Source of the DNA: Acidobacteriota bacterium
GTDB lineage: Bacteria; Acidobacteriota; Thermoanaerobaculia; Multivoradales; Multivoraceae
NCBI GenBank assembly: GCA_026707545.1
Contig: JAPOWR010000001.1
Coordinates: forward strand, 1,329,778-1,393,777
DNA length: 64,000 bases
Direction of reading: 5' to 3'
The notes under the pieces are model-generated. The model had not been told where the DNA came from, made no database searches, and worked only from the letters and a program-made list of their open reading frames with translations. Position 1 is the stretch's first letter. Every line of letters begins with the position of its first letter. Positions 7,423 through 58,455 of the stretch are shown here, in pieces. A program made the translations under genes and the position numbers.

Positions 7423-8715
<1,293 letters not shown>

Positions 8716-8738
8716 CAGCGGGCCCAGGAAGTCGCCGC

Positions 8739-9323
8739 TCACAACAGCCCCTCCTGCTGCAGATCCTCCTCTTCGGCCCCGGCCTTGAGCGCGCGCAGGC
8801 GCTGCCAGTTGCGCGCCGCCTCGGCCAGCCCCTGCAGGGCCAGGAGCGTGAATGCCACCAGCAGGACGCTCTTGATCGGATACCGCGGCAGACCGCCCGG
8901 ATCCGAGGACACCTCCAGCACCGCCCACGAGTTCCGTACCGCCGGCCAGGACATGATGAGCCCGAAGACCGCGAACGGGATCAGGAACAGCAACGAACCC
9001 CACAGGTCGATCCGCCGGCGCCAACGCTCCGGCAGCCGGCTGAAGATCACGTCGACGCGCACGTGGGCGTTGGTCTGGAGGGCGTACGCCGCGCCGAGCA
9101 GGAAGACCAGGCTGAACATGTACCACTGCAGCTCGAGATACGCGTTCGAGCTCAGGTTCCAGCCGGTGAAGCGCCCCAGGTAGCGTACGACTGCGTTGTA
9201 CGCTCCGACCGCGACCATGGCCAGTGTCAGCCAGGAGACCGCGACCCCGAGCCGCGAGTTGAAGCGGTCGACCCGGGCCACGAAGCGGGCCAGGAAGCCG
9301 CCCGGGGTTGGTGCTGACGCCAT
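8739..9323 (-). CDS. dctQ: TRAP transporter small permease
   Basis: Real protein begins at MASAPTPGGFLARF... (ATG at 9323..9321). 194 aa, 4 TM. Sits immediately upstream of dctM. The upstream part of the 444-aa ORF is GC-rich junk. Confidence 0.75.
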   Translation of the reverse strand: MASAPTPGGFLARFVARVDRFNSRLGVAVSWLTLAMVAVGAYNAVVRYLGRFTGWNLSSNAYLELQWYMFSLVFLLGAAYALQTNAHVRVDVIFSRLPERWRRRIDLWGSLLFLIPFAVFGLIMSWPAVRNSWAVLEVSSDPGGLPRYPIKSVLLVAFTLLALQGLAEAARNWQRLRALKAGAEEEDLQQEGLL

Positions 9324-9356
9324 GAGCGCGGGCAGGCTACCACCAGCGCTCCGGCC

Positions 9357-10679
9357 GTGATGGGCACTCCGGGGACTGACCTTCCCCGCCGGTTCGCGCG
9401 TCTGACGGCGCTCAATACAGCGTCCAATCTCACCGTGCCGCTGGCCGGTCTCGCCGACACCGTGATGCTCGGCCGGCTCGACGATGTCCGCTTCCTGGCC
9501 GGCGTCGTCCTCGCGGCCCTCATCTTCGACTACCTCTACTTCGGCTGCGCCTTCCTGCGCATGAGCACGACCGGCCTCACGGCCCAGGCCTGGGGGCGCG
9601 AAGACGCCGGGGAAGTCTCGGCGCATCTGTACCGCGCCCTGCTGCTGGCGGCGGCGCTCGGCCTCGCGGCCATAGCGCTCCGGGACCCGCTTGGCGACGC
9701 CGGCTTCGGACTCCTGTCCGGCACGGCCGGCGTGGAGGAGGCCGGCCGTCGCTACTACGACGCGCGCATCTGGGGCGCGCCGGCGGCCTTCGCCAACCTG
9801 GCGCTGGTGGGCTGGTTCCTGGGCCGCGGCGAGGCCGCGAGAGCGCTGCTCCTGGTCGTTCTGGCCAACCTCGGCAACATCGTGCTCAACTGGTGGTTCA
9901 TCGTTCACCTCGGCTGGGCCGCGTTCGGAGCCGGGGTCGCCACCGCCGGGGCTCAGTGGCTGAGTGCCGCCGCCGGCTTGGTCCTGGCGCTGGCGGCCGC
10001 AGGGTCGCTTCCAGCCTGGCCCACCCTCTTCGACCGCGCCGCGCTGCGTCAGATCCTCGCGCTGAGTGGACACCTGGTGATCCGCACGCTGCTCCTGGTC
10101 ACCGCCTTCGCCGTGTTCACCAACGCGAGCGCACTCTTCGGCGCCACCCGGCTGGCCGCCAACGGCGTCATTCTTCGCGTATTGAGCCTCGCCTCCTACT
10201 TCGTCGACGGGGCGGCCTTCGCCGGCGAAACGCTCGCCGGCATGGCCTTCGGCGCCGGCGACCGCCGCGAGTTACGGCGTGTCCTGCTCCTGACGCTGGC
10301 GGCGGCCGTGGGCTGTGCGGTCGTGTTCCTCGTCCCGGCGCTGGCGTTCCCCGATACCGTCTACGGCCTGCTCGTCGATCACGAAGACGTCGCGGCGCTG
10401 GCGGCGGAAAGCAACGTCTGGCTGCTGCCGGTGCTCCTCTTCGCCGCCCTCGCCTACGCCTTCGACGGCTTCTTCCTCGGGCTGACGCGGGGCAGGCTGC
10501 TCAGCCGCGCGATGGCGGTCAGCCTCGGGGTCGGCTTCGCTCCTCTCGCCTGGGCGGCGGTCCACTTCCGGGATCCGGACCTTCTCTGGCTCAGCATGGC
10601 CGGCCTGATGGCCGCGAGGGCGGGAACGCTCGGCTACGCAGCGCGCCCGTACCTGGTACCGGATCGCGGCGGCGCCTGA
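9357..10679 (+). CDS. MATE family efflux transporter
   Basis: 440 aa, 12 predicted TM. MATE/DinF-like N-terminus (TALNTASNLTVPLAGLADTVMLGRL). Confidence 0.8.
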   Translation: MMGTPGTDLPRRFARLTALNTASNLTVPLAGLADTVMLGRLDDVRFLAGVVLAALIFDYLYFGCAFLRMSTTGLTAQAWGREDAGEVSAHLYRALLLAAALGLAAIALRDPLGDAGFGLLSGTAGVEEAGRRYYDARIWGAPAAFANLALVGWFLGRGEAARALLLVVLANLGNIVLNWWFIVHLGWAAFGAGVATAGAQWLSAAAGLVLALAAAGSLPAWPTLFDRAALRQILALSGHLVIRTLLLVTAFAVFTNASALFGATRLAANGVILRVLSLASYFVDGAAFAGETLAGMAFGAGDRRELRRVLLLTLAAAVGCAVVFLVPALAFPDTVYGLLVDHEDVAALAAESNVWLLPVLLFAALAYAFDGFFLGLTRGRLLSRAMAVSLGVGFAPLAWAAVHFRDPDLLWLSMAGLMAARAGTLGYAARPYLVPDRGGA

Positions 10680-50050: not shown

Positions 50051-51109
50051 GGCTGGCCGGTGTTGGCAGTCCTCGCTGGCCTCACGATCGGCTGTGGGCA
50101 GGCATCTGAGGAGCTCGTGCTGCAGGGGCCGACGATGGGCACCTACTATCGGGTGCGCGCCATTGCGGACTCGGGTGATCGCGAGACGATTCGGGCTCTG
50201 GTCCAGCAACGGTTGGATGCGGTTGACCGCAGGATGTCGACCTACCGGGACGACTCGGAGATCTCTCGCTTCAATCGGCTCGCGGCCGGCGAGTCCTTCG
50301 TGTTCGCAGAGGAAACCTGGGCAGTCCTGGAACTCGCCTGGCGGGTGCGCGAGGAGAGCAACGGTGCGTTCGACCCAACAGTGGGGCCCCTCGTCGACGC
50401 CTGGGGCTTCGGTGCGCCCGGACGCGGTGCGGAGCCGACACCTCCTCTCGATGATCGCCTAGTGGAGCTACGTCGGGCGGTGGGCTCGATCGAGCTGGCA
50501 TCTGAGGGCCACCGAGTTCTCAAGCTCGAAGACGGAGCAGCTCTCGACTTATCCGCTATCGCCAAGGGTTGGGCAGTCGATAGCGTTTCCGAGGCTCTGC
50601 TCAAAGCCGGTTACACCAATCACCTCGTAGAGGTCGGCGGCGAGGTGCGCACCACCGGAAGTAGCCCAGCGGGCGACCCGTGGCGCATCGCGATTGAACG
50701 GCCACCCGTTCGAGTGACCGATCCCGCGCCAACAAGCGCCCCGGCAACCACAACGGCGGAGGCCCCAAAAGCCGGGCTCCAGAGGGTTCTCCTCTTCACC
50801 GACGGATCCCTGGCGACCTCGGGCGACTACCGAAACTACTGGGAGCGTGATGGCGTCCGCTACTCCCACACGATCGACCCCCGCACGGGACGGCCCGTTG
50901 AACACGCCCTTGCCTCGACCAGCGTGTTCCACACCAGCTGCGCCGTGGCCGACGCCTACGCCACCGCCCTGATGGTCCTCGGCCCCGAGGACGGCCTGGA
51001 GTGGGCGGACGAGAACGACATCGCCGCCCTGCTCCTTGTCTACCGCGAGGACTCACTCGAAGAACTCCCGAGCCGCGCTTTTCGCAACCGGTTCGGACCC
51101 GCCGAGTAG
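50051..51109 (+). CDS. apbE: FAD:protein FMN transferase ApbE (flavin-trafficking, Na+-NQR maturation)
   Basis: ApbE-family conservation over ~350 aa. Putative lipobox LAGLTIGC. In-frame start is GTG 50051 or TTG 50054. An out-of-frame ATG at 50032 would supply a better signal peptide. Confidence 0.8.
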   Translation, partial: GWPVLAVLAGLTIGCGQASEELVLQGPTMGTYYRVRAIADSGDRETIRALVQQRLDAVDRRMSTYRDDSEISRFNRLAAGESFVFAEETWAVLELAWRVREESNGAFDPTVGPLVDAWGFGAPGRGAEPTPPLDDRLVELRRAVGSIELASEGHRVLKLEDGAALDLSAIAKGWAVDSVSEALLKAGYTNHLVEVGGEVRTTGSSPAGDPWRIAIERPPVRVTDPAPTSAPATTTAEAPKAGLQRVLLFTDGSLATSGDYRNYWERDGVRYSHTIDPRTGRPVEHALASTSVFHTSCAVADAYATALMVLGPEDGLEWADENDIAALLLVYREDSLEELPSRAFRNRFGPAE

Positions 51110-51133
51110 CGGGCAGCCCGACGCCGTCCAGCC

Positions 51134-51309
51134 GGTCCGGGGCTCCGTGGGGGGAGGGGTCCCAGCGGACTCGAAGCGAGCGACGCCCGGCGACCCTCTG
51201 CCGACTGACAACGAACCGGAGCGAGCGTAGTGGAGTGCGCGCAGTCCTCCCATCCTCTCAGAGAGCGCGCACGGCCGCTGGGACCCTTCCCCCCACGGAA
51301 CCCCGGACC
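51134..51309. repeat. Palindromic repetitive element, copy 2 (inverted-repeat arms ~35 bp at 51134..51168 and 51275..51309, 2 mismatches), inverted relative to copy 1
   Basis: Arms share the GGTCCGGGG...GGGGGAGGGGTCCCAG core with copy 1. Internal segments (AGCGAGCGACG, GAGCGAGCG.AGTG) match the reverse complement of copy 1's interior. Confidence 0.75.
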
Positions 51310-51357
51310 AGGCGGGTGCTCTCCTCCGCCCCGCGCCGGTAGACTCGCCTGTGAGTC

Positions 51358-51540
51358 ATGGCGGTCCTGTTTCTCACGATTACTGTCATCGCCGCTTCGG
51401 TGATTCTCATGGCGGTCGGCGTGCTGTTGAGCGGGCGCTGCCTGCGAGGGTCCTGCGGGGGTCCCGATGTGCTCGGGCCCGATGGTGAGCCGCTGAGTTG
51501 CTCCAACTGCCCGCTGCGCCGTGCGCGGGAGGAGACCTGA
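51358..51540 (+). CDS. nqrM: Probable (Na+)-NQR maturation factor NqrM (DUF539-like small Cys-rich membrane protein)
   Basis: 60 aa. One N-terminal TM (LFLTITVIAASVILMAVGVLL), then CLRGSCGG...CSNC. NqrM is known to follow apbE in nqr loci. Confidence 0.55.
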   Translation: MAVLFLTITVIAASVILMAVGVLLSGRCLRGSCGGPDVLGPDGEPLSCSNCPLRRAREET

Positions 51541-53729
51541 TCGTCACCGAGGGCGCCACCGAGCGCCCGATCCAGATCACTCACCACGGCGAGACGCAGC
51601 CGTTCTCCCGCGGGTTGCTCGCCCGCAGCCTCTACGCTGCCGGACTCGACTTCGACCGGGCCTACCGTCGGGTGGAGCAACTGCAGCGACAGTTGCAGCA
51701 CGAAGGCACGACCAGCCTCGAGAAGCGGCGTCTCGTACGGCGGATCGCCGACTTTCTGGACACGGAAGAGGGCTCAGACACCGCCGGTCGCTACCGGCTG
51801 ATCCGGCGCCTGCGGCGGCTGCCCAAACCCCTGATCCTCTACATCGGCGGCGCCGGCGGCACAGGGAAATCGACGCTGGCCCTCGACCTGGCGCCGCAAC
51901 TCCGCATCTACCGGATCAACGCCACCGACACCGTGCGTCAGGTGATGCGGATGGTGTTCGCGCCGGCGATTCTGCCGGCGCTTCACGTCTCGAGCTATGA
52001 GGCGGCAACGGACCCTTCCGCCGAACTTGCCGCGGGAGCCGCGAATCCACAACTCGCCACGCTCGAAGAGCAGGCGACCAGGGTATGCGTCGGCGTGCGG
52101 GCCGTGGTCGAAAGGGCGATCGCCGAGAACATCAGCCTCGTGGTCGAGGGAGTCCACCTCTCGCCCGGACTGGTTCCCTTCACCGACCTGGAGGGAGAGG
52201 CGTATCAGTTCTTCGTCGTTCTCTCCACCCCGGACGAGGAGGTTCATCGGAGTCACTTTCTGGCGCGCGAGACCTTCGACGGCCGGAAGTCGAGCCGGCA
52301 CCTGGATCACTTCACGGTGATTCGCGAACAGCAGGACCGCCTCCTGCACCTGGCCGGAGAGGCCGACATCCCCATCCTGGACACGACGGACCGCGAACAA
52401 TCGCTCTCGGCGGCCATCGCCCTGCTCGGACAGAGCCTCTCCCAGCGACTTCCCTGGCTGACCCAGGCATCGGTCGAGTCGCTCGGCGAACGACGCACGC
52501 CGGCTCTGCTCCTGGTGATCGACGGATTACCCGACCGGCCCCTGCGCTCGCTCGGTGCACGGACGCCCCTGGAGGCCGCCCGCACCCCGACTCTCGACCG
52601 GCTAGCCAGGGAAGGCGTCTGCGGTCTGGCCGACCCGGTGGCACCGGGCGTCGTTCCGGATACGGCCTCGGGCAACCTCGCCCTGTTCGCGCAGTCACCG
52701 CGGGTGATGACGCGTGGACCGATCGAGGCGCTCGGCGCCGGCCTCAAGCTGAAGGCGGGCACGATCGCCATTCGGGGCAACTTCGCCACCCTCGATGAAC
52801 GCGGCAGCGTCGTCGACCGCCGCGCCGGCCGCATCCGCGAGGACGCGAAGAAGCTGGCGAAGGCGATCGACAAGCTGGACCTTCCCGCTTCCGATCGGGT
52901 CAAGGTGCGCGTGCGGGCAACGACCGAGCATCGGCTCGCGATCACGCTGCGCGGAGGCGGGCTGACTTCGGCCATCCAGGGCTCCGACCCGGGCGAGGGG
53001 GCTCCGTCCGGGCCGCCCCTGGCGCCGCGACCCCTCGATCCCAACGACGACAGCGCCGAGCGAACCGCCCGTGTCCTCGCCCTGTTCGAACAGGAGGCCC
53101 GCCGGGTCCTGGCCCGGCACCCGGTCAATGAGAAACGCCTGGAGAACGGAAAGCTGGCGGCCAACGCCGTCCTCACCCGGGGCGTGGGCCGGGTCCACCG
53201 CCTGCTTCCCCTGGAACCCGGCGGGTTGCCGCTCGAAGCTGCCTGCGTCGGCGGCGACCGCACCGTGATGGGGATCGCCTCGGCGCTCGGCGCTTCCGTG
53301 ATCCGCCGCCGCGGCATGACCGCGAACGTGGATACGGACCTCTCGCTCAAGTTCGACTGCGCCCTGGAGGCGCTCGAGGAGCACGACCTGGTGATGGTCC
53401 ACGTCAAGGGCGCCGACATCGCCGCCCACGACCGCCGCCCCGATCTGAAGGTCGCCTTCCTGGAACGGCTCGACCGCGAACTGGGGACCCTGCTCGACCG
53501 GCTGGAGCAACCCGTCCGGGTCGCCGTGACGGCCGATCACGCCACCCTGTCTGAACTGGGCGCGCATGGCGCCGATCCCGTGCCGGTGCTGATCTGGGGT
53601 GAGGGGATCGCACCGGACGGCGTGACAAGTTACGGCGAGCGCGCCGCGGGAACCGGCAGGTTGAATCGGTTCCCGCTCCAGCTCCTGATCGAGCGTCTCT
53701 TCGAGCAGCACGGCAGCGAGACGATCTGA
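51498..53729 (+). CDS. Fusion protein: ATP-cone + 2-phosphoglycerate-kinase-like P-loop kinase + archaeal-type cofactor-independent phosphoglycerate mutase (ApgM-like) domain
   Basis: 743-aa ORF. ATP-cone-like segment PIQITHHGETQPFSRGLLARSL. P-loop LILYIGGAGGTGKST with a 2PGK-like kinase body. C-terminal ~400 aa with the ApgM pattern LLLVIDGLPDRP...TPLEAARTPTLDRLAREG. First codon of the ORF is TTG at 51498, overlapping nqrM by 43 nt. True start uncertain (an in-frame CTG at 51535 is an alternative). Confidence 0.6.
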   Translation: MLQLPAAPCAGGDLIVTEGATERPIQITHHGETQPFSRGLLARSLYAAGLDFDRAYRRVEQLQRQLQHEGTTSLEKRRLVRRIADFLDTEEGSDTAGRYRLIRRLRRLPKPLILYIGGAGGTGKSTLALDLAPQLRIYRINATDTVRQVMRMVFAPAILPALHVSSYEAATDPSAELAAGAANPQLATLEEQATRVCVGVRAVVERAIAENISLVVEGVHLSPGLVPFTDLEGEAYQFFVVLSTPDEEVHRSHFLARETFDGRKSSRHLDHFTVIREQQDRLLHLAGEADIPILDTTDREQSLSAAIALLGQSLSQRLPWLTQASVESLGERRTPALLLVIDGLPDRPLRSLGARTPLEAARTPTLDRLAREGVCGLADPVAPGVVPDTASGNLALFAQSPRVMTRGPIEALGAGLKLKAGTIAIRGNFATLDERGSVVDRRAGRIREDAKKLAKAIDKLDLPASDRVKVRVRATTEHRLAITLRGGGLTSAIQGSDPGEGAPSGPPLAPRPLDPNDDSAERTARVLALFEQEARRVLARHPVNEKRLENGKLAANAVLTRGVGRVHRLLPLEPGGLPLEAACVGGDRTVMGIASALGASVIRRRGMTANVDTDLSLKFDCALEALEEHDLVMVHVKGADIAAHDRRPDLKVAFLERLDRELGTLLDRLEQPVRVAVTADHATLSELGAHGADPVPVLIWGEGIAPDGVTSYGERAAGTGRLNRFPLQLLIERLFEQHGSETI

Positions 53730-54248
53730 GTGGCGAAGAAAGTCGAACGCCCTGTCCAGCGCCGTGCGGATCTTGCAGGCGGTCGCGGCTTCGCCTGCGT
53801 CGCCCTCGACCGACCTGCCGATCCCGTCAACGTCGGCCACGTCCTGCGGGCAGCGCTCTGCTTCCAGGCCCGGATGATCATCCTCGGCCAGCCATCGGAA
53901 CACATCGACGTCCGGCGGCTGCCGACCGATCCGACCCGCGCCTACCGGCACGTTCCGGTGATCGAGGTGGAGGATCTGCTCGAGGCAACTCCTCGCGACA
54001 CGGCCCTCGTCGCGGTGGAGATCGTTCCGGATGCGATCGCACTTCCCGATTTCGTTCACCCCGAGCGGGCCTGCTACGTGTTCGGGCCCGAGAGCGGTTC
54101 GGTTTCGGAGCGCATCCTGAAGCACAGCGACCATCGCCTTCGCGTTCCCACCGCGGTATCGCTGAACCTCGGCATGACGGTTGGCGTCGTGCTCTACGAC
54201 CGCTGCGCCGACCGCTGGCGCCGCAACCGACAGGAAGGGTCCGACTGA
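53730..54248 (+). CDS. TrmH/SpoU family RNA 2'-O-methyltransferase (TrmL-like)
   Basis: 172 aa. SPOUT fold motifs (DPVNVGHVLRAALCF, YVFGPESGSVSE). Confidence 0.65.
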   Translation: MAKKVERPVQRRADLAGGRGFACVALDRPADPVNVGHVLRAALCFQARMIILGQPSEHIDVRRLPTDPTRAYRHVPVIEVEDLLEATPRDTALVAVEIVPDAIALPDFVHPERACYVFGPESGSVSERILKHSDHRLRVPTAVSLNLGMTVGVVLYDRCADRWRRNRQEGSD

Positions 54249-54249
54249 G

Positions 54250-54942
54250 TCAGTTTTCGCCGGGCGATGTCGCCGTCTCGGCAAAGAGCGACAGCAGGGG
54301 AAGCCCGAGCCGCTCGCGCACCAGGCGGCGCACCAGACGCTGACGGAGATCCGGCAGCCTCTGCTCCTCCACTCGTCCCGCCGTCCGGCGCAGCGCTTCG
54401 TCGGCGCCCGCCACTACGGCCTCGCGGTCCGGGGCTGCCAGCGAGTCGAACGCCCGCGCGACCAGTTCGAGATCCAACTCCGCCAGTCTCGCCTCGATCT
54501 CCGGCGCCGGTCCGTCGAGCGCCAGGAGCCTGCGTCTTGTGGCGTCGACTCCCTGAAGCGAGGAGGGCAGGGCTGCCGCGAGTGCGACCAGCTTCCGAGG
54601 CACATCGATAGCCGGCGGCGGCCTTTGAACCGACGGTATCGGTCCCAGCTCCCGATGGACGGCCCATGCCTTCTCCACCGCCGGCCGGCAGTAGCGCAGA
54701 CTGCTCACCCGCCGCTTGGGCGCATCCGGCGAGGCGGCCGCCCGTTCGGCCCGCCGCGCGAACACTTCGCGGATGCTCTCGAGAACCAGGGTTAGCGGTA
54801 CGCCATCCCGCCGCCACTGCCGCGCAAGACGCCAGTCCGCCGGACTCAGCAGCAGGGGTGCTCCCCGCAGCCTGATGAACTCCTCCTCGATGACCTCGAA
54901 GTAGTCGCGGTCCCCGCTCCCGGGATCCGCTCCCGGCGTCAC
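54250..54942 (-). CDS. Hypothetical protein
   Basis: 230-aa ORF co-oriented with, and overlapping by 4 nt, the birA gene upstream. Acidic/helical. No motif I can assign. Confidence 0.35.
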   Translation of the reverse strand: MTPGADPGSGDRDYFEVIEEEFIRLRGAPLLLSPADWRLARQWRRDGVPLTLVLESIREVFARRAERAAASPDAPKRRVSSLRYCRPAVEKAWAVHRELGPIPSVQRPPPAIDVPRKLVALAAALPSSLQGVDATRRRLLALDGPAPEIEARLAELDLELVARAFDSLAAPDREAVVAGADEALRRTAGRVEEQRLPDLRQRLVRRLVRERLGLPLLSLFAETATSPGEN

Positions 54943-55757
54943 GCCTCGATGACCTCGCCCGACGCGATCGTGCGCAGGCCGGCCGGCGTCTCGAGGCGGA
55001 AGCGTCCGCCGTCGTCGAAGCCGGCGAACCGGCCCGAAACCGTCTCGCCGCCGATCCGGCAGCTCACTTCGTCGCCCTCGCGATGGATCGTGCAGCGGCG
55101 GTAGGAATCCAGGGTGTACTCCAAATCACCCGCACGACCCAGCTCGCATTCCATCGAACTGGCGAGCCGTGCGACGGCGGCCGCCCGCGAAGGCGGCCTT
55201 CCGGTTTCGAGCGCGATCGATGTTGACACGGGCGTCGGCAGCTCGCCTGCTGTGCCGAAGTCGTAGTTCACGCCGAAACCGATCACGGCCACGGTCTCTC
55301 CCCCGCCGCCGACTACCGTCTCGATCAGGACGCCCGCGATCTTGCGGCCCTCCACGAGCACGTCGTTGGGCCACTTGAGGCCCGCTCGCCCGTCGACGAA
55401 GTCCGTCACCGCACGGCACACGCCGATGCCGGCGAGAAGGGGCAGCGACCCGAGCTGATCCTCCAGGGGGCCAGCTCCCGCGATCGGCAACGGCTGCAGC
55501 CAGGTGCAGTAGAGACCCCGTTCCGCGGTGCTGACCCAGGAGCGGCCCTGTCGACCCCGACCCGCCGTCTGCTCGAAGGCCACGACCAGGGCAGGCTGCG
55601 GCATCGACTCTTCCTCGAAAAACCGCTCCGCGAGTGTCTTGACGAAGCGGTTCGTCGAATCGACGGTATCCATCAACACGAAGTTTCCCGCCAGGCGCGG
55701 CGACCAGGCCAGCAGTTCCCCGGTGAACTGGTCGAATGCCTCGGAGCGGTCCGCCAT
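54939..55757 (-). CDS. birA: Biotin--[acetyl-CoA-carboxylase] ligase
   Basis: Start at MADRSEAFDQF (ATG 55757..55755). BirA catalytic motifs (FEQTAGRGRQGRSW, KWPNDVLVEGRKIAGVLIE). About 272 aa. Confidence 0.8.
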   Translation of the reverse strand: MADRSEAFDQFTGELLAWSPRLAGNFVLMDTVDSTNRFVKTLAERFFEEESMPQPALVVAFEQTAGRGRQGRSWVSTAERGLYCTWLQPLPIAGAGPLEDQLGSLPLLAGIGVCRAVTDFVDGRAGLKWPNDVLVEGRKIAGVLIETVVGGGGETVAVIGFGVNYDFGTAGELPTPVSTSIALETGRPPSRAAAVARLASSMECELGRAGDLEYTLDSYRRCTIHREGDEVSCRIGGETVSGRFAGFDDGGRFRLETPAGLRTIASGEVIEA

Positions 55758-55785
55758 CGGGGCGCGAAGGCTAGCAGCACTCACA

Positions 55786-58455
55786 CTAGTGGCCGAGCGC
55801 CTCGGACACCCGTTGGCGACGTTCCTCGAGTTCGGCGAGGCGCGCGCGGTTGCCCTCGACCACGTGGACCGGAGCCTTCTCGAGGAACCCGGTGTTCGAG
55901 AGTCGGCCCCGGGCCCCGGCAATCTCGGCATCGATCTTCTGCAGGTCCCTGGCGAGTTTCGCGCGCTCGGACTCGCTCATCGCAGGAACCTCGACCTCGA
56001 ACGCGAGATTCACTCCCCCGACCCGGTCCCGGACCGACCCGGCCGGCCCCCTGCCGGCTGTGACCTGACCGACACCGGCCACCGCGTCCAGCAGGGATGC
56101 CTGGTCGACGACGAAGGCGATCAGGTCCCGGTCGCCGTCCTCGACGAAGACGGACATCTTCGCCGCCGCGGCGAGGTTCCGCTCGCGGCGCAGACTCCGG
56201 GCCGCCTGGACGGCGGCGATCACGACGTCCATGCCGCGCTCCACGTCGTCCGAAACTAGGTCGTCGTCGCCCAGCGGGTAGGCCTGAAGCGCGATGCTCT
56301 CCGGCTCCCCGGAGCCCGGAGCCGTGGCTCGCGGCAGGCGCTGCCAGAGCTCCTCCGTCAAGTGCGGCATCACCGGATGGAGCAGCCGCAGGCTCGATTC
56401 GATCGCGAACAGAACCGTCTCGGCGACCCGCGGCCTGGGCGCCCTTCCCGAGAGGGCCGGCTTCGCGAACTCGATGTACCAGTCGCAGAGCTCGTGCCAG
56501 AAGAAGTAGTAGAGCGCGTTGCAGGCACGGTCGAAACGAAACTCCTCCAGGGCCTCGTTGACCGCGGCCGCGGTCGCTGACAGGCGCGAGAGGATCCACC
56601 TTTCGGGCGCCGCCAGGTCGTCACCGAGCAACTCGGCGGCCGACCCTGGAACGCTGGCCCCTTCGGTCCGTGCCAGCGCGAACCGGACCGCGTTCCAGAT
56701 CTTGTTGCCGAAGGCGCGATAGCCCGCCATCCGCTCGAGGTCGAGCGGAATGTCGCGTCCCGGAACGTCGAGCACCGCCAGCGTGAAGCGCATTGCATCG
56801 GCCCCGTACTCCTCGACCAGGTCCATCGGGTCGACCGTGTTGCCCTTCATCTTCGACATCTTCTCGCCCCGCGCGTCCCGCACCAGACCGGTCAGATGGA
56901 CGGCGCGGAACGGCACGTCGCCGCAGAAGTGCTGCGAGAGCATGACCATGCGGGCGACCCAGAAGAACAGGATGTCGAATCCCGTGATCAGCACGTCCGT
57001 CGGGTACCAGGTCTGCAGGTCCGGGGCATCCCGGTCGGGCCAGCCGAGGGTCGACAGCGGCCAGAGCCCCGACGAGAACCAGGTGTCCAGCACGTCGGGG
57101 TCGCGGGTCAGTTCGTCCGTGCCGGCCAGTTCCTCGGCCTCCCGGCGGTCCATCGCGACGTAACAGGCCCCGTCGCGGTCGTACCAGGCCGGAATGCGGT
57201 GTCCCCACCAGAGCTGCCGCGAGATGACCCACGGCCGGATGTTGCGCAGCCAGTGTTCCCAGGTCTTGTCCCAGGTGTCGGGGATCAGCTCCAACCGCCC
57301 GTCCTCGACGGCGGCGAGCGCCTCCTTCGCCATGCCCGAAACATCGGCGAACCACTGCGGCGACAGCATCGGCTCGATCGGTTCCCCGCTCCGCTGCGAG
57401 TGGCCCACGCTGTGGACGTGCCGCTCGGTCCCGACCAGGCGCCCCTCCGCTTCGAGCCGTTCGACCACCCGCCGCCGGGCTTCCAGGCGGTCCAGGCCTT
57501 CGAAGTCGGCACCGGCCTCGGCCGTCATCCGCCCGTCCAGGCCGATCACGCGCACGCCCGGGAGATCGTGCCTGCGCGCGATCTCGTAGTCGTTCGGGTC
57601 ATGAAACGGCGTGACCTTGACCAGTCCGGTGCCGAACTCCGGGTCGACGTATTCATCGGCGACCAGCCGCAGACGCCGCCCCAGGATCGGCAGCCGTGCG
57701 AAGCGGCCTCCGAGGCGTCGGTAGCGATCGTCGTCTGGATGGAAGGCAACCGCGGTATCGCCCAGCATCGTCTCCGGCCGTGTCGTCGCGACGATCAACG
57801 GTTCTTCGGGGACGCTACCGCTGCCTTCCTCCGGCTCCAGCGGATACGCCAGGTGGTAGAGCTTGCCCTCGACCTCCCGGTTCTCCACTTCCAGGTCCGA
57901 CACCGCCGTCTGCAGGACCGGCGACCAGTTGACCATGTGCTCGCCGCGGTAGATCAGGTCCTCGCGGTACAGCTCGACGAAGGCGGTCCGCACGGCGTGC
58001 GCGAGGCGTTCGTCCAGGGTGAACCGCTCTCGAGACCAGTCGCAGGAAGCCCCCAGCCGCTGCAGCTGGCCCCGGATGTTCGAGTGGTACTCATCCTTCC
58101 AGCGCCATACGCGCTCAACGAACTTCTCGCGGCCGAGTTCGACCCGGCTCGATCCCTGTAGCTCCAGGTGCCGCTCGACCATCAGTTGGGTCGCGATGCC
58201 GGCGTGGTCCGTGCCGGGAAGCCAGAGGGCGTTGTCGCCCCGCATCCGCCGCCAGCGGGTCACCAGGTCCTGGAGCGTGCTCTGCAGCGCGTGCCCGATG
58301 TGCAGCCTGCCGGTCACGTTCGGCGGCGGAATCAGGATGCAGTAGGGAGCCGGTCCCCTCCGTTCGGGATCCTCCGGGCAACGGAACAGATCCCGCTCCG
58401 CCCACCACGCCTGCCACTTGCCCTCGTAGGACGCCGGGTCGAAGCGCTTCTTCAC
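55786..58455 (-). CDS. valS: Valine--tRNA ligase
   Basis: 889 aa. HIGH ([13 protein letters not shown]) and KMSKM (KMSKMKGN) class I motifs. C-terminal coiled-coil. Confidence 0.95.

Follow-up and report, generated by a model that had tools for sequence, protein, structure and literature searches.

A fused 2-phosphoglycerate kinase-like and ApgM-like protein of Acidobacteriota: a candidate link between lower glycolysis and phosphate storage

Background

2-Phosphoglycerate kinase (2PGK; EC 2.7.2.16; PRK04220/PRK12337; COG2074), known from Methanothermus fervidus, has a P-loop small-molecule kinase behind an ATP-cone. Together with cDPGS, the synthetase that makes cyclic 2,3-diphosphoglycerate (cDPG), it constitutes the cDPG pathway of hyperthermophilic methanogens. 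In methanogens, cDPG is proposed to store phosphate and energy (PMC10690619), and it is stated in the literature to be exclusive to the hyperthermophilic ones. Both the 2PGK family and the family of the archaeal-type cofactor-independent phosphoglycerate mutase (iPGM) ApgM (TIGR00306; COG3635; Protein Data Bank (PDB) entries 2ZKT, 3IDD and 3KD8) are already known, as is their phyletic co-occurrence (COG2074 and COG3635) in Thermus and Deinococcus, noted in 2005 (PMC1274311). Here we describe a gene in which the two are joined in one reading frame. It lies at positions 51498..53729 (+) of a 64,000-nucleotide stretch of contig JAPOWR010000001.1 from an Acidobacteriota bacterium (assembly GCA_026707545.1), hereafter called the window. 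In the open reading frame (ORF) listing of the window it has 743 codons and a TTG start, and overlaps by 43 nt a 60-aa nqrM-like ORF (51358..51540), exactly as an earlier note on this DNA had described it.

The window protein shares with 2PGK the succession of ATP-cone and P-loop kinase, over a full-length match. It differs in scoring under the equivalog cut-offs, in being fused to a mutase and in being devoid of the first cone-like repeat of bacterial 2PGKs. Stand-alone bacterial 2PGKs adjoin a cDPGS gene, whereas the fusions never do. Compared with ApgM, the fusions carry xT..G[TSN] instead of GSDxxH, their mutase domain scores below the PRK04024 equivalog cut-off, and it is always paired with a kinase. 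The cDPG pathway employs the same kinase family, and at one locus (L137) ApgM, 2PGK and cDPGS are found in one operon. However, no cDPGS lies near any fusion, the hosts are mesophilic-looking Acidobacteriota metagenome-assembled genomes (MAGs), and the neighbours are genes for polyphosphate (polyP) and inorganic phosphate (Pi) functions. The resemblance to 6-phosphofructo-2-kinase/fructose-2,6-bisphosphatase (PFK-2/FBPase-2) is one of analogy only, since the second domain of that enzyme is a histidine phosphatase (dPGM fold), it has no ATP-cone and the C-terminal halves are not homologous. The LPA1 protein (low phytic acid 1) of plants, likened here by description, is a P-loop protein resembling 2PGK, a homolog of the kinase family with genetics tied to phosphorus storage; it is eukaryotic and has no mutase domain. 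This plant homolog controls seed phytate and total phosphorus (PMC4844318).

No description of the fusion, or of an association between 2PGK and polyphosphate, was found in a literature search. What appears to be new is the recognition of the kinase and a Thr-type mutase as one module, fused or adjacent. The systematic placement of this module in phosphate/polyphosphate loci, with its separation from cDPGS-linked 2PGKs, likewise appears to be new, as does a truncated derivative devoid of a proper start codon in the window lineage.

Results

The fusion comprises, from its N- to its C-terminus and all on the + strand, an ATP-cone-like module (residues 26-107; 51573..51818), drawn as a beta-hairpin followed by helices in an AlphaFold2 (AF2) model, a 2PGK-family P-loop kinase domain (residues 112-317; 51831..52448) with the Walker A motif GGAGGTGKST at 51846-51875, an inter-domain linker (residues 318-335; 52449..52502) and an ApgM-type mutase-like domain of the alkaline-phosphatase superfamily (residues 336-735; 52503..53702), with the putative nucleophile T389 at 52662-52664. 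Within the linker P319 is invariant in the alignments, and the confidence score pLDDT falls to 64 in the model. The earlier note had read the protein as a 2PGK-family kinase fused to an ApgM-type mutase, and this assignment holds by NCBIfam, Pfam and the alignment with 2ZKT. The motifs quoted there, GGAGGTGKST and LLLVIDGLPDRP...TPLEAARTPTLD, were both found in the window protein.

The NCBIfam 2-phosphoglycerate kinase models cover residues 25-318 (PRK12337, E 1.4e-72, residues 30-318; PRK04220, E 1.2e-65, residues 25-315). The Walker A motif is intact, and Arg, His and Glu are retained at the conserved positions; 61 sequences show no variation at G118, G121, G123, K124, S125, D144, R147, R151, R201, R206, E217, H220, H250, R251, R257 and R263. 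A sequence search of the PDB with the kinase half gave no match below E 0.1. In a fold search it fitted the small-molecule P-loop kinase fold and not zeta-toxin or AAA+ proteins, which the earlier note had given as examples of a different P-loop family; together with the NCBIfam models this places it in the 2PGK family. The N-terminal ATP-cone needs more nuance. Pfam ATP-cone (PF03477) matches residues 30-107 of the window protein below threshold (18.3 bits against 25.8, E 0.0035), whereas the same module in two relatives (P0100 and P0041) reaches 49.0 and 36.0 bits, above the threshold, so that the homology is real but diverged here. PRK04220 aligns the module from its model position 6. In our reading the module would act as a regulatory sensor.

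In the C-terminal half, ApgM models cover residues 336-732, with TIGR00306 at 329.6 bits (cut-off 320), and Pfam PhosphMutase and Metalloenzyme match as well. Its alignment with ApgM of Pyrococcus (2ZKT) runs from end to end (E 2e-72), the closest solved structures are ApgM (36-40% identity), and both the alkaline-phosphatase-superfamily core and the cap domain are present. The metal-site residues D342, D640, H644, D680, H681 and H690, which we take to be the iPGM ligands (D; D-x3-H; D-H; H) on the basis of the 2ZKT alignment and general knowledge of iPGM, are invariant in the 61 sequences together with T389, and so are the cap-domain/substrate-side motifs R426-x-N428, D440-RRAGR and T476-EHR. 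The nucleophile motif differs: GSDtAH of 2ZKT corresponds to DTAsGn here, the window protein having D-T389-A-S-G-N. Among the 150 best cluster representatives, all 11 fused ones have a Thr nucleophile and no His at +4, while most stand-alone ApgMs have GSDxxH, some GTDxGH, and a minority a Thr and no His. The closest stand-alone proteins of this minority, P0136 and P0150, have a 2PGK-like gene directly upstream (16-nt gap or overlap), 36% and 32% identical, respectively, to the N-terminal half of the window protein. These gene pairs indicate that the kinase and the Thr-type mutase form a conserved two-part module that is sometimes fused. Judged by its motifs, the mutase domain of the fusions is a distinct subtype, with a putative Thr nucleophile and without the +4 His.

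The single polypeptide proposed in the earlier note recurs in other genomes. The same fusion is present in more than 1000 proteins and in 11 deep 50%-identity clusters of 760 aa or more, and it is continuous, with a conserved linker, in more than 100 loci from many assemblies. A frameshift or mis-assembly joining two genes was therefore rejected. In the lineage of the window both halves have a dN/dS of 0.10-0.13 (dS up to 1.06), a mark of purifying selection, and the frames are intact in 33 of 34 relatives. In the remaining one (L030:9629-12207) the fusion is split into two overlapping ORFs, with 191 codons from the CTG to the stop, and this MAG has either been misassembled there or carries a true pseudogene.

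For the comparison of gene neighbourhoods, reference proteins were taken from three Pfam-labelled loci with fusions about 60% identical to that of the window (L058, L059 and L060), and compared by phmmer (E<1e-8) with all ORFs of 140 loci. PPK1, PPK2, PPX, CHAD, PhoU, Na/Pi and PstC/A served as Pi/polyP markers; PstB and the response regulator were dropped as non-specific. Of the 45 distant fusion loci whose flank is 6 kb or longer, 28 carried at least one marker, as did 19 of 26 with at least 12 kb, against 0/35 window-lineage loci and 0/16 stand-alone 2PGK or ApgM loci (0/51 together). Fisher's test of the association gave 8e-13, for loci that are related and not phylogenetically independent. 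In L058, PhoU, the fusion and PPX succeed one another with overlapping stop/start junctions, with PPK1 also present. L059 has two PPK2 genes near the fusion, and L060 shows a Pst permease and ATPase, CHAD, a ParA-like gene, PPK2, PPK2, PPK1, a SixA-like gene, the fusion and CNNM. Immediately upstream of the fusion, the genes met most often are those for a SixA-like histidine phosphatase, in 13 loci, and for PhoU, in 9 loci, and PPK1 is directly upstream in L035 (38% identity) and L131 (49%). Among the deep fusion clusters (36-40% identity) five of seven adjoin Pi genes, namely OprP, PstS, PhoU and PstCABB (P0126), PstS (P0127), a YjbB-like Na/Pi+PhoU gene, PhoU_div and PHO4 (P0128), PPX, PHO4 and PhoU_div (P0129), and PhoU and PstCABB (P0131); no Pi gene was present in the available flank of P0125 and P0276. 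One marker-negative locus (L077) contains a phosphate-selective OprO/P porin. The placement of the family thus suggests an enzyme linking a glycolytic intermediate to phosphate storage.

Some of these neighbourhoods are of interest in themselves. A polyphosphate 'supercluster' recurs in Acidobacteriota (L060:3075-13595, with the same order in L065, L078, L082, L096, L109 and L130), in the order CHAD, ParA/MinD-like ATPase, PPK2, PPK2, PPK1 (opposite strand), SixA-like histidine phosphatase, fusion and CNNM/CBS Mg-transporter-like gene. In a marine-looking group of 56% GC (L087:9198-12928, likewise L085, L095 and L121) the fusion follows TRAP-transporter, enoyl-CoA-hydratase and CoA-transferase genes, and is flanked by a 180-aa PTP/DSP-like phosphatase gene upstream and a HAD hydrolase gene downstream, with no polyP genes within 10 kb. 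The 803-aa protein of the deep cluster P0276 (L149:847-6656) is encoded divergently from shell genes of a bacterial microcompartment (BMC, EutN/CcmL) and an aldehyde dehydrogenase gene.

Stand-alone 2PGKs have other partners. The 2PGK of L137 passes the PRK04220 equivalog cut-off (353.8 against 343) and is followed in its operon (L137:2934-6785) by a 491-aa cDPGS gene and by ApgM. The 491-aa gene product matches the M. fervidus cyclic-2,3-diphosphoglycerate synthetase 8ORK with E 1e-106. This cDPGS homolog (L137:4060-5535) has no match in Pfam-A or NCBIfam and was identified by PDB sequence search and a precomputed PF27272 label, so that such genes are easily missed in annotation. Used as a tblastn query, it revealed a homologous cDPGS gene (identity 33-40%, E as low as 3e-75) directly upstream of each stand-alone 2PGK in the Actinomycetota MAGs L037-L056. 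These 2PGKs are of the two-cone type; in L049, for example, cDPGS at 8619-9875 precedes the 2PGK starting at 10001. These operons tie bacterial 2PGK homologs to 2,3-bisphosphoglycerate (2,3-BPG) chemistry, and bacterial MAGs with cDPGS-2PGK operons question the textbook confinement of cDPG to hyperthermophilic methanogens. The best 120 matches of a protein-database search with cDPGS were all methanogen-like, a result with no bearing on the rest of the fusion genomes.

Fusions outside the window lineage have about 80 additional N-terminal residues, with the consensus FLRGMxTHDLVQRGLxFxxAYAxARAxRD, a module not recognised by Pfam. In internal-repeat BLAST searches, residues 35-80 of the window protein hit the L137 2PGK in its two repeats, with E 5.5e-6 for the first, and residues 33-70 hit the L145 kinase in its first repeat, with E 3e-5. 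Judged by these matches, the additional module is probably a diverged copy of the cone-like one. The window copy would then be an N-terminally truncated derivative of a two-cone ancestor. The gene order in L058 is nqrA-F, apbE, nqrM, response regulator, Na/Pi cotransporter, PhoU, fusion, PPX and PPK1, and that of the window is nqrF, apbE, nqrM, fusion and spoU. A deletion may have removed the first cone-like module and set the remainder against nqrM and, if the intermediate resembled L058, the one intermediate locus on which this scenario rests, it would also have taken the response-regulator, Na/Pi and PhoU genes. Such a deletion would explain the absence of a proper start codon.

Beyond the TTG at 51498 the window sequence has no in-frame ATG, GTG or TTG up to the invariant QPFSRG motif. 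This TTG is CTG in many relatives (L004, L006-11, L021-25, L027, L029 and L031) and hence not conserved as a start; in L004 and L023 no ATG, GTG or TTG occurs between the upstream in-frame stop and QPFSRG. Across the overlap (51498-51540) synonymous changes prevail in the nqrM frame (361 synonymous to 253 non-synonymous pairwise substitutions), whereas non-synonymous ones prevail in the fusion frame over the 39 nt from the TTG to the nqrM stop (174 to 517). The coding signature of the fusion frame starts just past the nqrM stop, with 41% synonymous substitutions against 10% and 22% in the other frames. In the AF2 model residues 1-20 are disordered (pLDDT 30-35) and the fold starts at residue 26. 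The annotated codons 1-13 (51498..51536, +) thus evolve as nqrM, not as fusion, and are probably not part of the functional protein. On these comparative grounds, namely the CTG in many relatives and the nqrM-like substitution pattern, the TTG was rejected as a conserved start, although it may still be used in this one genome. The start 43 nt inside nqrM that the earlier note had reported is accordingly correct as the only canonical start codon here, but, being unconserved, it is probably not the real N-terminus.

A single start-like element, GGAGGA-N3-CTG, is invariant; among start-like codons, its CTG alone is the same in all 34 loci. The GGAGGA core, likewise unchanged in 34 related loci, belongs to a Shine-Dalgarno-like sequence, GGGAGGAG, at 51527..51534 (+), and the CTG at 51537..51539 (+) overlaps the nqrM stop TGA (51538-51540). 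The sole indel between this CTG and QPFSRG is of 3 nt, preserves the frame and lies upstream of the fold. We infer that translation most likely proceeds by coupled initiation or re-initiation at or near CTG 51537, yielding a product of about 730 aa. The conservation of GGAGGA has two possible causes, as it also encodes the nqrM C-terminus (R-E-E/D); this element and the C before TGA may be conserved through nqrM codons. A programmed -1 frameshift from the nqrM frame into the fusion frame was considered and is not supported, no X_XXY_YYZ heptamer being present in nqrM.

Where the TTG is absent, gene callers give products of 761, 806 or 678 aa. The public N-termini of three such relatives of the window protein (P0016, P0017 and P0018) differ by up to 128 residues, one call spanning all of nqrM and one cutting into the cone module. 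For annotation the case is instructive, as a canonical start codon presumably destroyed by a deletion, in a gene under strong selection, leads callers to four N-termini.

Discussion

Our best reading is that the fusion is a bifunctional, probably ATP-gated enzyme making 2,3-BPG from 3-phosphoglycerate (3PG) by way of 2-phosphoglycerate (2PG) in the service of phosphate homeostasis, and we give it a probability of about one half. The ApgM-like domain would isomerise 3PG from central metabolism to 2PG, which the 2PGK-like P-loop domain would phosphorylate with ATP to 2,3-BPG, while the ATP-cone modules, two ancestrally and one in the window protein, would gate the reaction by nucleotide status. 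The product might buffer phosphate or energy in soluble form, or act as an effector alongside polyphosphate and Pi handling, rather than serve glycolysis or F420. This role is suggested by the Pi/polyP neighbourhoods of the family, by the storage function proposed for cDPG and by the phosphorus phenotype of LPA1. For the window copy, translation would be coupled from the nqrM stop via GGAGGA-N3-CTGA at 51537. The earlier note had supposed the two activities to act in sequence, and this gains support from the 2PGK-cDPGS-ApgM operon of L137, where ApgM is able to share an operon with 2PGK and cDPGS, and from the split kinase-then-mutase gene pairs. The cDPGS genes in front of stand-alone bacterial 2PGKs and the joint presence of COG2074 and COG3635 in Thermus and Deinococcus also speak for a shared function of the two enzyme types.

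If this is true, an uncharacterised enzyme that goes under the plain label 'iPGM' in databases is present in many Acidobacteriota and in several further lineages, and lower glycolysis is connected to phosphate storage beside PPK1, PPK2, PPX, CHAD, PhoU and Pst. 2,3-BPG would gain a bacterial role, the widespread bacterial 2PGK homologs would gain a testable function, and a parallel would be drawn to the unexplained role of LPA1 in phytate accumulation. A wider proposal, possible but in our view rather doubtful, is that the kinase and Thr-type mutase, fused or adjacent, form an unrecognised component of bacterial phosphate/polyphosphate homeostasis, which would make and possibly break 2,3-BPG as a phosphate/energy buffer or second-messenger-like effector under ATP-cone sensors. 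It would represent a bacterial counterpart of the logic of PFK-2/FBPase-2 and of the cDPG phosphate storage of methanogens.

Several observations weigh against the 2,3-BPG synthase reading. Both halves fall short of equivalog cut-offs, the kinase half with 221.9 against 343 and 244.8 against 603, and the mutase half with 366.3 against 489 (PRK04024), 221.7 against 468 (PRK04135) and 209.4 against 426 (PRK04200). With a Thr nucleophile and the +4 His missing, simple iPGM activity is not guaranteed, and the Thr-type domain may catalyse a reaction that differs from plain 3PG/2PG interconversion. By tblastn with the L137 sequence, cDPGS is absent from the 64-kb window and from about 117 fusion loci, within the loci themselves. 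About a third of the distant loci show no Pi gene within the available flank. The 64-kb window and 35 close relatives contain no Pi/polyP marker gene, so that for the window lineage (0/35) the physiological link is by descent only. Finally, we know of no established role for free 2,3-BPG in bacteria beyond the priming of dPGM.

The altered nucleophile motif keeps three other explanations alive. One holds that the fusion sets the level of 2,3-BPG, by analogy with PFK-2/FBPase-2: the kinase would make it, the mutase-fold domain would dephosphorylate it through a phospho-Thr, and cone sensing would set the balance. We think this unlikely, as the cap-domain substrate motifs of ApgM are kept as in true mutases, and the ordinary-looking ApgM that accompanies 2PGK and cDPGS in L137 fits a supply of 2PG and not hydrolysis. 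Moreover, the SixA-like, PTP-like and HAD phosphatase genes that often flank the fusion could do the removal instead.

By another explanation the Thr-type domain resembles phosphopentomutase, and the kinase would supply catalytic amounts of 2,3-BPG or phosphorylate Thr389, the net activity being an ATP-gated 3PG/2PG mutase that primes itself. The motif change is compatible with this, but the Pi/polyP neighbourhood would be left unexplained, some canonical stand-alone ApgMs have a Thr (GTDxGH) without any kinase, and a full-size two-cone kinase, under selection as strong as that on the mutase, seems excessive for priming, all of which makes the proposal improbable.

The substrates may also be different ones, such as another phospho-acid or a phosphonate, with a role in organophosphate scavenging under the Pho regulon. 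The sub-equivalog scores and the divergent active-site motif agree with this, as does a context of Pst, PhoU and OprP genes, typical of Pi-starvation genes. PhpG and a proposed homoserine kinase belong to the ApgM family, and mevalonate-3-phosphate 5-kinase and plant Lpa1 to the 2PGK family; weaker matches to PhpG (250 bits), hyp_Hser_kinase (206) and mevalonate-3-phosphate 5-kinase (43) were obtained. However, 2PGK and ApgM are the best matches by a wide margin, the nearest structure is ApgM at 36-40% identity and the L137 operon ties both families to cDPG synthesis, so we attach little probability to other substrates.

That the window gene is a decaying, 5'-truncated remnant whose expression is lost is very improbable: the first module and any conserved canonical start codon are gone and the relative L030 has a disrupted frame, but dN/dS is about 0.1, 33 of 34 relatives have intact frames, the catalytic residues are invariant, the 3-nt indel keeps the frame and an invariant Shine-Dalgarno-like element precedes the CTG. 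The idea of the earlier note that the fusion supplies a phospho-acid donor to F420 biosynthesis encoded about 20 kb away is scarcely credible and was dropped, as it has in its favour only co-residence in the same 64-kb window, whereas the conserved neighbours are nqr, apbE, nqrM and spoU in 38/38 close relatives and Pi/polyP genes in distant ones, with no F420 gene among the Pfam-labelled neighbours of 13 sampled loci.

Other features of the window

The nqrM-like ORF (51358..51540, +; 60 aa) is the final gene of an nqrA-F/apbE/nqrM block and is found 3' of nqrF and apbE in all relatives. Its Pfam NqrM score is below threshold (17.4 bits against 22), and its L058 ortholog passes with 22.6 bits. 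The apbE-nqrM spacer (51110-51357) is about 250 nt long and matched no Rfam family, nor any sigma-70-like promoter or terminator; an Rfam search covering the entire window and a scan of 50900-54500 for promoters and terminators gave nothing useful.

At its 3' end the fusion gene stops at TGA 53727..53729 (+), in the context ATC TGA GTG, which abuts the GTG start (53730) of the next gene. This zero-spacer neighbour (53730..54248, +) encodes a SpoU-family RNA 2'-O-methyltransferase (Pfam SpoU_methylase, E 2.9e-19) and is conserved in the window lineage only (35/38 close relatives, 0 distant fusion loci). Beyond it, a 230-aa ORF (54250-54942, -), with no Pfam or NCBIfam match at E<=0.01, is convergent with spoU and overlaps by 4 nt a biotin-ligase-like gene (54939-55931, -).

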